Assembly: GCA_033720895.1 (NCBI GenBank)
Contig: JAWWBS010000003.1
Location: 3,791-67,790, forward strand
Source of the DNA: Gammaproteobacteria bacterium
Lineage (GTDB): Bacteria; Pseudomonadota; Gammaproteobacteria; Natronospirales; JAJUFS01
Length of the DNA stretch: 64,000 bases
Direction: 5' to 3'
In this document: positions 28,995 through 31,946 of the stretch, one piece after another
How the letters are laid out: each line of letters opens with the position of its first letter
How positions within the stretch are numbered: the first letter of the stretch is position 1
Made by a program: the position numbers and the translations under genes
The notes under the pieces: model-generated
The model's input: the letters and a program-made list of their open reading frames with translations, nothing else
Told to the model about the DNA's origin: nothing
The model's database searches: none

Positions 28995-29032
28995 CTGAAA
29001 ACGAAGAAGCCTCGGCTTTCGCCGAGGCTTCT
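28995..29032 (-). terminator. stranded original tRNA-Pro rho-independent terminator
   Basis: A 12-bp perfect stem AGAAGCCTCGGC/GCCGAGGCTTCT (29005..29032) is followed on the minus strand by TTCGTTTTC. It lies about 10 nt 3' of the tRNA-Pro 3' fragment. Confidence 0.6.
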
Positions 29033-29042
29033 CGATGATGTC

Positions 29043-29093
29043 TGGTCGGGGTGAGAGGATTTGAACCTCCGACCACCTGCACCCCATGCAGGT
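29043..29093 (-). repeat. attL-like direct repeat: orphan 3' 51 nt of tRNA-Pro(GGG)
   Basis: Identical base for base to 31870..31920. It covers the anticodon arm, variable loop, T arm, 3' acceptor strand and CCA. Identity ends exactly at 29094. Confidence 0.9.
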
Positions 29094-29245
29094 ATCGAAA
29101 AAACCATCTTTTCCTTATATTTCAGCGGTTTATCGTCACAAAAGACCTGCATTTTTGAGTACTGTCAGGTAAATAGAATCAACAACTTACCCCTGTATAT
29201 TCCCAACCCAAAATGAAGCCACACCTTCACTAATCCGTCAGTTCC

Positions 29246-29920
29246 TCATTCACACCAAACAGAGCACTCGTTATTGCGGTCAATATTATATAGCTCAGCT
29301 GAAGCGCATGCTCCGTATGCCGAACCGTCCAAGAATATGACTCTGTCTCCAGAGTCCCATCCCATGCAATAAGTTTTCGCTTCAAAAACCTCTCCATTGA
29401 TTATGAATTTCTCATCGTTATAGGCATTACCAATTGAATAAACACTTGGTTTTGAGCATCGCCTGGGCGCTCTAAGCAATTCGACATCAAATGGTTCTTT
29501 ACCCTCAATAACCAGTTTTCCGCGTGACCTGCTTCCCATGATCAGCAGACTATCTTTCGCGTAGCCGATGTATCCGATATATCCGTATCCTTTTTTTCTT
29601 AAAATTGAACCATCCCTCAATTCAAAGTAATCGCCATCTCGATCAGATATTTTTGATTTACATACTTGAGTATTTTTTCTGACTATCCGACGCGGAGGTT
29701 CCATCCCAGAACCCTCCTTAAACTGAATGATAAGTTGCATCAGTTCATCTTGACTGTAATTCTCAAAGGCGCTGCTCGCTAAACACACGTCCACAATCAG
29801 AACGTAGCCCTGATCGCATTCACCATCGATATTCGTATTCTTTATTGGATCCGAGTGAACAGATAGAGAAACAAGCCCGAAGAAGAGAGCTGGCAGCAAT
29901 AATATATTCCTTAGTCCCAT
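29246..29920 (-). CDS. hypothetical secreted Cys-rich protein
   Basis: The ATG at 29920 has AGGAG 5 nt upstream. The signal peptide is MGLRNILLLPALFFGLVSLSVHS|DP. There are 9 Cys in the mature part, a GYGYIGYIGY stretch, and the C-terminus ends CSVWCE. I recognise no family. The ORF-track start at 30013 is less likely. Confidence 0.6.
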   Translation of the reverse strand: MGLRNILLLPALFFGLVSLSVHSDPIKNTNIDGECDQGYVLIVDVCLASSAFENYSQDELMQLIIQFKEGSGMEPPRRIVRKNTQVCKSKISDRDGDYFELRDGSILRKKGYGYIGYIGYAKDSLLIMGSRSRGKLVIEGKEPFDVELLRAPRRCSKPSVYSIGNAYNDEKFIINGEVFEAKTYCMGWDSGDRVIFLDGSAYGACASAELYNIDRNNECSVWCE

Positions 29921-30079
29921 TTGCACTCCTAGAGGCGAAGGTCGCCACAGAAACTTGCCGCTTGAATGCTTGCTAGCACCTTTCCGATAGCCAATACGAA
30001 GCGTTATCGACACGTCGATCGCTACTGAAAATTACGATACTCCCAGCTCGGCTCCACGCTTGTATGCACACAAACCGAC

Positions 30080-30577
30080 TTAAGGCCTACTGCAATCGCA
30101 GGCCCCGCAGACGCATTTAATCCACCCACATTCTGAACAAGTCTCCTGCTTTGTATTGCTTATTGGCAACTTGCAAGAAAAGCAATACGTATCACGCGCC
30201 CCCCTTTTTCCGACAATCCGCCGAATGCCCGCCGCTTTTTCCTGAGCGAAATTCTGGCGTACCTTTTCAGCCTGTTCTCTCTTTCTTCTCTGGCGATAAT
30301 ACTCTTTCTCTTCAACAATCCAGGAGAAGTTAGCACCATCCTTCCACTTGCGGTAAGCATCGATCGCGGGCGCACGATGTTTTTCCTTCGCCGAACTAAA
30401 GTAGCCCCTTGCGCTTCGATCATATTTTCCGATTTCTTGCGATTCGACTTCCCACAAGAATACATGAGGACAATCCTTCAGCTGAATAGAAGGATCGAAT
30501 ACGACAATTCCCCCCTCATATTCCCCAACCCATAGACTCACATTCTCTTCCAATTCTGTACCCCCGCTGGCTACCAC
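30080..30577 (-). CDS. hypothetical protein with C-terminal Cys8 zinc-ribbon-like cluster
   Basis: 165 aa with a GTG start and GAGG about 8 nt upstream. The middle is basic and probably helical (EEKEYYRQRRKREQAEKVRQNFAQEKAAG). The C-terminus is CFSCKLPISNTKQETCSECGWIKCVCGACDC. I recognise no family. Confidence 0.55.
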   Translation of the reverse strand: MVASGGTELEENVSLWVGEYEGGIVVFDPSIQLKDCPHVFLWEVESQEIGKYDRSARGYFSSAKEKHRAPAIDAYRKWKDGANFSWIVEEKEYYRQRRKREQAEKVRQNFAQEKAAGIRRIVGKRGARDTYCFSCKLPISNTKQETCSECGWIKCVCGACDCSRP

Positions 30578-30653
30578 ATAAAAGCCTCACCAATTCGGTC
30601 AAGCTATATCATTCTGATCCCCTAAACCCCCACCTATTGTTAGCTGCTAAGGC

Positions 30654-31535
30654 TTATCGAAAAGCAAGTCGTTTTAGTGGGGCGTGATATTGATCAATCA
30701 AGGAGTAAATAGGATCCGCCCCATGAAAAAATGATTCGGAATCAACTCCATGCTCAGTTGTTAGTTTTGCCTCTCGACGGACCGTAGAAATGGCGCCTTT
30801 TCCTACCTGCCTTTTCCACCCCGGAAAGCCAATCTGGGCAATCTTCTGAAGGGATGTGTCCTTAGGACCAAAGCCAAATTTTCTTTTTGACTTAATTTTG
30901 CAAACATCGATAAAGTTTTTATGCGGATTATCAAGGCAAAATCCGTAATCTCTTAGCCTCTGGTCCAGTTCCTGGTAAGTAATCGTGTAGTACCGGTTAT
31001 CCCTCTTTCTTGAGTTCTTTCTAATGAAGTCTGCAATCCAAATAATTTCAGGGTCATTGGAACGGCGTCCTGAAGACTTCTTTACGCGACGCTTCTTTAG
31101 ATTATTCTCAGCAATATCAACGACAAAATTCTCTAGTGGGCGCTGCTTAATAGTGGGCGATCGGTTAATCCTGGCCAGAAAATACAAAAGTACCAGCAAA
31201 CCTGTTCGTTTATTTGCATCGTGGAATGGGTGGTCCTTCACCAAACCATAAACAAGTGTGGCGCATCTTTCGAAAGGATCCTTCCACTTGTCATTGCCGT
31301 CAAAAGATACAAATTGCCGGTAAACAGCTGAATGGAGCAGATTTGGATCTCGAGGCCCCACACCACCAATGCCTCTACCCTCAGAATAGAAGTGATCAAC
31401 AATGAGGAAGTGGGCCCTCAACACATCAAGCATCCCAATTGTGTCTTTGGATGCGTACGGGTCCGATTCACCAAAATGTCTACACCACCGCTCGAACTCC
31501 GACTTAACAGCAGAATTTATGAGAATTATTTCCAA
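30654..31535 (-). CDS. Fic/Doc family protein, Doc-type (kinase-like) motif, with about 150-aa C-terminal extension
   Basis: 293 aa with a TTG start and GGAGA about 7 nt upstream. The Fic-fold core carries HPFHDANKRTGLLV, which matches the Doc variant HxFxDANKR rather than the AMPylase form HxFx(D/E)GNGR. The basic C-terminal region (KKRRVKKSSGRR...KSKRKFGFGPK) is absent from canonical Doc of about 126 aa. Confidence 0.8.
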   Translation of the reverse strand: MEIILINSAVKSEFERWCRHFGESDPYASKDTIGMLDVLRAHFLIVDHFYSEGRGIGGVGPRDPNLLHSAVYRQFVSFDGNDKWKDPFERCATLVYGLVKDHPFHDANKRTGLLVLLYFLARINRSPTIKQRPLENFVVDIAENNLKKRRVKKSSGRRSNDPEIIWIADFIRKNSRKRDNRYYTITYQELDQRLRDYGFCLDNPHKNFIDVCKIKSKRKFGFGPKDTSLQKIAQIGFPGWKRQVGKGAISTVRREAKLTTEHGVDSESFFHGADPIYSLIDQYHAPLKRLAFR

Positions 31536-31770
31536 AAATATCTCTCCGAAGTCGACTCAGACATTCAACACGTGTTAACTCGCTACAATCAAAAATGCAC
31601 GAATATTTTGGGAATATTGTTTCCCCAGAGTCTGGAGAACTACTGGCGCAAAAGAAAGTAGCAAGAGCTGAAATACCGGAAGCCTCAATCTGGCGAATCC
31701 AGAGGTGTCGAGATCTGTATGGAAATTCGAACACCTGCAGAAATGAACCGGTACCCACGGTCGATCGCGT

Positions 31771-31804
31771 GTTGGAAATATTATTTTTCCAAAATATTTC
31801 CAAC
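31771..31804. promoter_or_regulatory. perfect 12-bp inverted repeat (candidate operator or hairpin) upstream of the Doc-like gene
   Basis: GTTGGAAATATT, a 10-nt spacer, then AATATTTCCAAC. The spacer itself contains TTGGAAAAAT (minus-strand reading). Related TTGGRAATA(T/A)T copies occur at 31601..31619 and across the TTG start at 31535. Confidence 0.4.
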
Positions 31805-31813
31805 ATATTGCCA

Positions 31814-31844
31814 ACGAAAAAAGGGCGCCCAAAAAGGCGCCCTT
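31814..31844 (-). terminator. rho-independent terminator of tRNA-Pro, supplied by the islet
   Basis: On the minus strand, AAGGGCGCC-TTTTTG-GGCGCCCTT is followed by TTTTTCGTT, about 25 nt after the CCA end. Confidence 0.65.
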
Positions 31845-31869
31845 AACTCATTGTTATTGCTGAGGAATT

Positions 31870-31920
31870 TGGTCGGGGTGAGAGGATTTGAACCTCCGAC
31901 CACCTGCACCCCATGCAGGT
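31870..31920 (-). repeat. attR-like direct repeat, forming the 3' part of the intact tRNA-Pro
   Basis: 51/51 identical to 29043..29093. Confidence 0.9.
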
Positions 31921-31946
31921 GCGCTACCAGGCTGCGCTACACCCCG
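31870..31946 (-). tRNA. tRNA-Pro (anticodon GGG)
   Basis: A 77-nt cloverleaf folded by hand. Acceptor CGGGGTG/CACCCCG; D arm GCGC/GCGC; anticodon stem CCTGC/GCAGG with loop AT-GGG-GT (U33, G37); T arm GGAGG-TTCAAAT-CCTCT; encoded CCA. Confidence 0.93.

Follow-up and report, generated by a model that had tools for sequence, protein, structure and literature searches.

Long Doc, a stand-alone, multi-part Doc-type Fic enzyme encoded on a low-GC islet of a gammaproteobacterial genome

Background

Doc is the textbook example of a Fic-fold enzyme turned kinase, and the form of it that is known is solely a small toxin that is restrained by a separate antitoxin, Phd. Members of the Doc subfamily are recognized by their phosphorylation of EF-Tu (at Thr382 in E. 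coli) and by the inverted orientation in which they bind ATP. Among the AMPylating relatives of Doc, the class II and class III Fic enzymes in the classification of Engel et al. 2012 reportedly carry an inhibitory helix in the same polypeptide. Here we examine a gene whose product has the active site of Doc in a protein of a different build. The gene lies in a 64,000-nucleotide stretch of DNA from a gammaproteobacterium of the Natronospirales (assembly GCA_033720895.1, contig JAWWBS010000003.1, positions 3,791 to 67,790 of the forward strand). This whole stretch is called the window below, and coordinates refer to it unless a related locus is named. We refer to the protein, a stand-alone, multi-part Doc-type Fic enzyme, as long Doc.

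Doc proteins are usually single-domain (PMC4454073), and a search of the literature retrieved no paper describing the long form. The family examined here keeps the Doc active site, always without an antitoxin gene and always with an uncharacterised basic domain. The question it raises is how a translation-poisoning kinase stays safe in one polypeptide.

Results

The long-Doc gene (30654..31535, minus strand) is an intact open reading frame (ORF) of 293 codons plus a stop, with a TTG start, and its extent is supported by Pfam and NCBIfam matches and by the full-length alignment of homologues of 294 amino acids (aa). The active-site loop of the 293-aa product, HPFHDANKRTG (residues 102-112; 31200..31232, minus strand), can be read directly from the sequence and is conserved in the family. 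Within its context, H102-P-F-H-D-A-N-K109-R110-T-G-L113, a lysine replaces the second glycine of the AMPylase motif, and there is no arginine three residues past the motif. The protein matched the Pfam Fic family PF02661 over residues 37-120 with 48.7 bits against a cutoff of 24 (E = 1.4e-12), the NCBIfam model TIGR01550 (DOC_P1) with 46.1 bits against a cutoff of 38.65, and the PHROG 577 family, 'Doc-like toxin', with an E-value of 1.4e-18. Among solved structures the best match was P1 Doc, both by sequence and by fold (Foldseek). When the N-terminal half was compared with the PDB, P1 Doc (3k33 and 3dd7) gave a template modelling score (TM-score) on the target of 0.70-0.77, versus approximately 0.27 for FICD-type AMPylases; sequence identity to P1 Doc is about 22% over the aligned Doc domain. 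An AlphaFold2 (AF2) model, together with Foldseek matches to Doc and FICD structures, displays the helical fold of Fic proteins, in which the loop that carries the motif is placed between two helices of the core. By each of the sequence and fold criteria checked, long Doc belongs to the Fic/Doc superfamily and to its Doc (kinase-type) branch, not to the AMPylase branch.

The catalytic loop is also nearly invariant. Counted over 227 family members, the histidine is present in 224, the phenylalanine in all 227, the aspartate in 214 (with asparagine in 11 others), the asparagine in all 227, and the lysine and the arginine in 225 each. Therefore, this is an enzyme under selection to stay active. 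The inhibitory motif of Fic proteins, [ST]xxxE[GN], is absent from the window protein, and the matches to it in the family are scattered, chance occurrences in 12 of the 227 members. It is highly improbable that long Doc is an AMPylating or other non-kinase Fic enzyme or a catalytically dead scaffold: Fic chemistry is plastic, and one FICD homologue does appear among the weak sequence matches, but Lys109 stands where AMPylases have glycine, the terminal arginine is lacking, TIGR01550 scores above its cutoff, the TM-scores favour Doc over FICD, and a conserved set of catalytic residues is found together with no inhibitory motif. The initial annotation of the window had singled out the HPFHDANKRTG loop and placed the protein in the kinase-type branch by its HxFxDANKR pattern. 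The loop is no chance match, and the placement holds, as the profile and fold searches above lead to the Doc branch and not to an AMPylase clade. The alignment to PF02661 and P1 Doc that it had proposed gave, besides the Fic match above cutoff, a map of the Doc domain and of the parts that have been added to it.

The AF2 model was built with 41 homologues at 57-71% identity, which are conserved over the whole length, and reached a predicted local distance difference test score (pLDDT) of 87.9 and a predicted TM-score (pTM) of 0.84. Four parts make up the protein: an acidic helix at the N-terminus, a domain with the Doc fold, a variable basic loop ahead of the last helix of this domain, and a conserved, strongly basic domain at the C-terminus, some 115 aa long. 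The N-terminal extension (residues 1-34; 31434..31535, minus strand), 34 aa that did not figure in the initial annotation, is acidic, forms a helix at residues 8-21 and includes the near-invariant residues R16 and W17. It is lacking both in P1 Doc and in a shorter sister subfamily (260-280 aa, motif HPFHNGNKR). The TTG codon that had been taken as the likely start is right, because a ribosome-binding site, GGAGAG (31542..31547, minus strand, read from the sequence), lies 6 nt 5' of it and because the alignment of the 294-aa homologues, whose own start is ATG, begins at residue 1 (MEI...). The public NCBI record of the same protein (P0001) has 259 aa and begins at Met34, and its start was probably called too short, 33 codons late. 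As annotated there, the protein loses the conserved N-terminal helix (region 31434-31535), which the homologues encode from their ATG.

The Doc-type Fic domain itself (residues 35-177; 31005..31433, minus strand) was delimited by the Pfam, NCBIfam and Foldseek matches and by the alignment with P1 Doc. Before its last helix sits the variable basic loop (residues 146-161, LKKRRVKKSSGRRSND; 31053..31100, minus strand), which was delimited by AF2 confidence and the family alignment. In the model the pLDDT of this loop (KKRRVKKSSGRR) falls to about 54, and to less than 50 at residues 154-156. Family members have 7-25 residues in this loop, with an average charge of +1.9; here the charge is +7. Because the last helix of P1 Doc aligns to residues 162-173, after the lysine/arginine stretch, in the alignment with P1 Doc and distant members, the stretch at 146-161 is a loop inside the Doc domain. 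The initial annotation had described a single lysine/arginine-rich C-terminal region of roughly 150 aa. A real C-terminal domain has indeed been added (residues 178-293), but the region is not one unit, as the basic run is a variable loop within the Doc domain, and it is not in the conspicuous lysine/arginine runs that the conservation lies.

The C-terminal domain (residues 178-293; 30657..31004, minus strand), as defined by AF2, Foldseek and charge, consists of an alpha-beta-beta-beta-alpha core at residues 178-256 followed by a helical tail that ends in PLxRLAxR. It is present throughout the wider family, and its core carries a charge of +7.9 +/- 2.4 over about 79 residues, with an isoelectric point of 10. 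No Pfam family covers it and no sequence in the PDB matches it; it is none of the known annotated domains. The structure prediction and Foldseek search that had been recommended for this region returned a weak resemblance of the fold to HicA and double-stranded RNA-binding domains (dsRBD), and the best matches, whether the domain was searched alone or in the full-length model, were three independent HicA structures (1whz, 6g26 and 4p78). The position near the catalytic histidine of HicA is unconserved (H205 in 98 of the 227 members), so a role as an RNase is unlikely for the C-terminal domain, and no HicB-like neighbour was found in the related loci compared. The strongly basic core would fit nucleic-acid binding. 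Of the regulatory, nucleic-acid-binding or targeting functions that were first suggested for the extension, nucleic-acid binding thus gains indirect support, from the basic core and the dsRBD/HicA-like fold.

When the C-terminal region was modelled alone, the confidence of the tail and of helix 162-173 dropped from about 90 to 60-73, and the beta-core kept its high confidence, a hint that the tail and this helix are packed onto the Doc domain. The terminal residue is arginine in 165 of the 227 members and lysine in 45. By eye, the tail DPIYSLIDQYHAPLKRLAFR shares 5-6 identities and the terminal arginine with residues 54-73 of P1 Phd. As a candidate for a fused copy of the Doc-binding helix of Phd, however, it was rejected: hhalign found nothing significant and picked a different helix, and the comparison was dropped as evidence. 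A search with the C-terminal domain alone retrieved only short proteins, with no fusion to any other domain. Natural pairs of a Doc gene and a separate C-domain gene would mark the C-domain as an antitoxin, but the two cases that we examined were pseudogenes. In loci L069 (2639-3453) and L071 (2596-3468) the gene is broken inside the Doc domain (a frameshift in a T6 run; an in-frame TAA), and gene callers report two genes in each. Such pseudogenised copies fit a gene that can be costly to carry.

Nor is the protein a curiosity of the window. It belongs to a large, length-conserved family (about 294 aa) that NCBI names automatically as 'death-on-curing family toxin'. A family search with clustering at 90% identity (E <= 0.001) yielded 911 clusters; in the best 120 of these 911, nearly all sequences have 293-298 aa and align over their full length. 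An exhaustive profile search gave 281 clusters at 50% identity (E <= 1e-30). Members are distributed patchily among Gamma-, Beta- and Alphaproteobacteria, Bacteroidota, Acidobacteriota, Planctomycetota, Gemmatimonadota and others. Whether the protein is a toxin or does its host no harm, the current label 'type II toxin-antitoxin system death-on-curing family toxin' misdescribes these genes. Two Pseudoxanthomonas loci (L030, 4450-6105, and L034, 2278-3936) hold tandem paralogues, in which a long Doc with a HPFHDANKR-type motif is immediately followed by a 249-aa relative that has the motif HAFENGNKR and the same C-terminal domain.

Members of the family move as lone genes, carried by mobile elements and by defence or toxin-antitoxin islands. 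One member is a moron in a Xanthomonas P2-like prophage, between tail gene S and baseplate gene J. Another occupies the accessory locus of Vibrio filamentous prophages, a variable locus that is reportedly enriched in defence genes (PMC11630473). Further members were found on the 7.9-kb replicative form of a Salmonella inovirus and, close to a TIR gene, on a conjugative IncF plasmid of Klebsiella. Elsewhere the gene adjoins that of a TIR protein or lies near that of an OLD-like ATPase, and two more settings are an island that also encodes a Fic_N-Fic protein, HigBA and a PIN protein, and a mobile element with YqaJ, DUF932 and RadC genes. Distant relatives with 24-28% identity are present on small filamentous phages of two genera, Vibrio (L009, 6746-7348) and Salmonella (L067, 3998-4732), and both adjoin the replication and regulation module of the phage.

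Carriage by temperate and chronic phages could also be explained if long Doc were a non-toxic mobile-element moron, a kinase that acts on a protein of the host or of a rival element, or on a complex bound to RNA, to serve host takeover, the control of lysogeny or anti-defence. With self-poisoning no concern, it would need no antitoxin. The category of PHROG 577 is 'moron, auxiliary metabolic gene and host takeover', and phage kinases that disarm defences are known, such as the T7 kinase (PMC13645617). We consider this explanation unlikely, because the copies pseudogenised in the catalytic domain (L069 and L071) suggest a cost, because the gene is often found outside phages, among TIR, OLD-like, HEPN, PIN and HigBA genes, and because all Doc enzymes that have been characterised poison translation.

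The absence of a Phd-like gene upstream, which was remarked on initially, was confirmed in the window and extends to the related loci. The leader of 334 bp holds two ORFs (31504-31806 and 31575-31832, both on the minus strand), neither of which has a Pfam match at E <= 1. When all ORFs within 1.5 kb of the gene were compared in 41 loci, no small neighbour gene clustered across lineages, and no conserved partner gene or Phd-type gene was found across about 45 related loci. Long Doc thus fails the defining features of a phd-doc module: no small antitoxin gene (Phd/YefM, AbrB/MazE, Xre, YhfG and the like) is adjacent, and the protein is not a single-domain toxin of about 120-140 aa but reaches 293 aa through three additional elements.

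As a rule, toxins of this superfamily depend on an antidote, and long Doc might be an ordinary type II (or III) toxin whose antitoxin has escaped recognition, as a fast-evolving small ORF beside it (such as the downstream ORF of 165 aa in the window), as an antisense or repeat RNA in the leader, or as a factor supplied in trans. The 296-nt leader RNA does fold better than shuffled controls (z = -3.1), and in locus L035 an upstream ORF bears a weak resemblance to ribbon-helix-helix proteins (E = 0.016, below the Pfam cutoff). However, neighbouring ORFs differ in nearly every locus and form no cross-lineage cluster, the ORF next to the gene in the window is an orphan (see below), and the gene stands alone between unrelated genes in the P2-like prophage and the inoviruses. 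The leader is free of tandem repeats and matches no Rfam family, and palindromes are not in excess upstream of the gene in the related loci, a count that does not decide the matter of operon autoregulation. We regard an unrecognised antitoxin as quite unlikely, and an RNA antitoxin or an operator was set aside as a candidate on these last observations. A near-perfect palindrome, TTGGAAATATTTTGGAAAAATAATATTTCCAA, is present at 31783-31815, just inside the islet described below and about 250 nt upstream of the Doc gene, and a related sequence, TTGGAAATAAT, is found at 31515-31535, at the start codon. This palindrome and the leader could be an operator, a recombination site or nothing.

In the window the gene resides on a low-GC islet of 2.78 kb (29094..31869) with a GC content of 0.42-0.49 versus about 0.60 in the flanks and with three minus-strand ORFs. 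The islet abuts an intact tRNA-Pro(GGG) gene (31870..31946, minus strand), whose 3' 51 nt (31870-31920) form the left direct-repeat copy; the right copy (29043..29093, minus strand) is a perfect 51-nt duplicate of this 3' part of the tRNA. The native terminator of the tRNA follows the partial copy, at about 28998-29031, and a terminator-like hairpin brought by the islet (31821..31844, minus strand) is located just downstream of the intact tRNA. Flanking genes are pheT, ihfA, a MerR-like gene and one for a CAAX protease. No integrase or other recombinase gene is present in the islet, and the segment (29043-31946) is either a decayed island or an element that was moved in trans.

Both other ORFs of the islet were considered as partners and rejected, since neither has homologues in the related loci. 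The first, an orphan of 165 aa (30080..30577, minus strand), lies 76 nt 3' of the Doc gene, has a cysteine-rich C-terminus and no Pfam family, and among 5.8 billion proteins matched only its own record. Its C-terminus, CFSCK...CSECGWIKCVCGACDC, is zinc-ribbon-like. The second, of 255 aa (29246..30013, minus strand), includes a signal-peptide-like segment and is of no known family: an internal methionine precedes the signal-peptide-like MGLRNILLLPALFFGLVSLSVHS, several cysteines are present, and no Pfam, NCBIfam or PADLOC family matched.

Just two kinds of neighbour recur at the related loci. In 6 loci, from Gammaproteobacteria (Xanthomonadales) or unclassified metagenome-assembled genomes, the class II ribonucleotide reductase gene nrdJ, in two pieces, lies upstream; we read this as a shared insertion site and not as a functional neighbourhood. 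In locus L015 (28-3213) the ribonucleotide reductase has an apparent intein-like insertion (1062 aa versus 719 aa in the homologue of L024). A two-gene pair stands beside long Doc in three unrelated phyla (L014, 167-1359; L045, 940-2099; L037, 7150-8482). One gene of the pair has a Swt1-like HEPN signature (R-N-x-x-x-H), and the pair looks like a separate defence or toxin module.

Discussion

With a probability of roughly 0.5, we favour the reading that long Doc is a stand-alone Doc kinase toxin that is targeted or gated by its own C-terminal domain and that serves in phage defence or inter-element competition. Like P1 Doc, it would transfer phosphate from ATP to a translation factor, of which EF-Tu is the most likely, and in this way arrest protein synthesis; the choice of EF-Tu as the presumed target follows the example of P1 Doc. 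The basic dsRBD/HicA-like domain would take over the role that belongs to a separate Phd in P1. It may serve as a tether between the kinase and RNA or the translation machinery, or it may hold the kinase off until a trigger, such as phage infection, arrives. The gene would then act as a one-gene toxin for abortive infection or for competition between elements.

Several points weigh against this proposal. The kinase activity, the EF-Tu target and the toxicity are all suggested by one line of evidence, homology at about 22-30% identity. The fold matches to HicA are weak (Foldseek E-values of 0.1-0.6, TM-scores on the target of 0.55-0.61), an hhalign comparison with E. coli HicA was not significant (probability 0.3%), and the Pfam HicA family PF07927 was matched by only 1 of 15 sequences, with an E-value of 0.18, which does not amount to membership. 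A search of PADLOC-DB v2 gave partial matches only, of the Fic core (residues 67-145) to PDC-S23, S05 and S04, candidate systems whose architecture differs from that of long Doc; no system model in that database was matched over the full length. Presence in defence islands is anecdotal, as it concerns several loci and comes with no statistical enrichment. Finally, mean-field direct-coupling analysis of 208-226 full-length sequences for contacts between the parts was unusable, because the top pairs were indel or alignment artefacts.

A bolder proposal, which we put forward tentatively and consider rather unlikely, is that long Doc is a single-chain toxin-antitoxin or immune sensor, which would make it the equivalent, among Doc proteins, of CapRel and the class II/III Fic proteins. 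Its own C-terminal domain and tail, with or without the acidic N-terminal helix, would fill the groove that Phd occupies in Doc and thereby silence the kinase. Once a phage RNA or protein bound the basic dsRBD-like domain, the kinase would be freed, EF-Tu would be phosphorylated, and the infected cell would stop translating. If so, no Doc kinase before long Doc would have been regulated in cis, and a new defence system of one gene would be found in many phyla and types of mobile element. More generally, if the extra domain is a sensor or a brake, the family would represent a compact new weapon against phages or rival elements, and Doc would gain a new class of regulation. If, on the other hand, the protein does its host no harm, Doc-type kinases would have targets beyond EF-Tu.

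Compared with known systems, long Doc shares with P1 Doc (phd-doc, type II; 3k33 and 3dd7) the fold, the HxFxDANKR loop and carriage on mobile elements. However, P1 Doc is a single domain of 126 aa, and the C-terminal helix of Phd, the product of a gene of its own, neutralises it, whereas long Doc, at 293 aa more than twice that size as was noted at the outset, has in addition a helix at the N-terminus, an inserted loop and a C-terminal domain of 115 aa, with neither Phd nor a conserved partner. In the models the core of the C-terminal domain shows the alpha-beta-beta-beta-alpha topology of HicA (1whz, 6g26 and 4p78, all weak fold matches) and is strongly basic, as expected of an RNA binder, but the domain differs in having no significant sequence similarity, no conserved catalytic histidine, no HicB and an extra helical tail. 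It is thus not a HicA by sequence or by catalytic residue, and at most the fold is shared. SoFic (PMC12249575) is a Fic-fold protein that acts alone as a single-gene anti-phage toxin; unlike long Doc, it is an AMPylase, its architecture differs, and there is now a report of a small regulatory protein beside it.

The closest precedents in concept are the class II/III Fic proteins, CapRel(SJ46) and EzeT. In the class II/III Fic proteins, as is proposed for long Doc, a Fic-fold enzyme does without a separate antitoxin and has its regulatory element in cis, although these are AMPylases with the [ST]xxxE[GN] helix and long Doc has a Doc-type site and lacks that motif. The toxin folds of CapRel(SJ46) (PMC9712102) and EzeT (PMC4826407), a toxSAS and a zeta kinase, respectively, are unrelated to Doc, and autoinhibition and phage sensing are hypotheses in the case of long Doc. 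Nevertheless, in both of these systems, as in long Doc, a toxin domain and a C-terminal regulatory or putatively regulatory domain are joined in one protein, encoded with no partner gene at prophage or defence loci.

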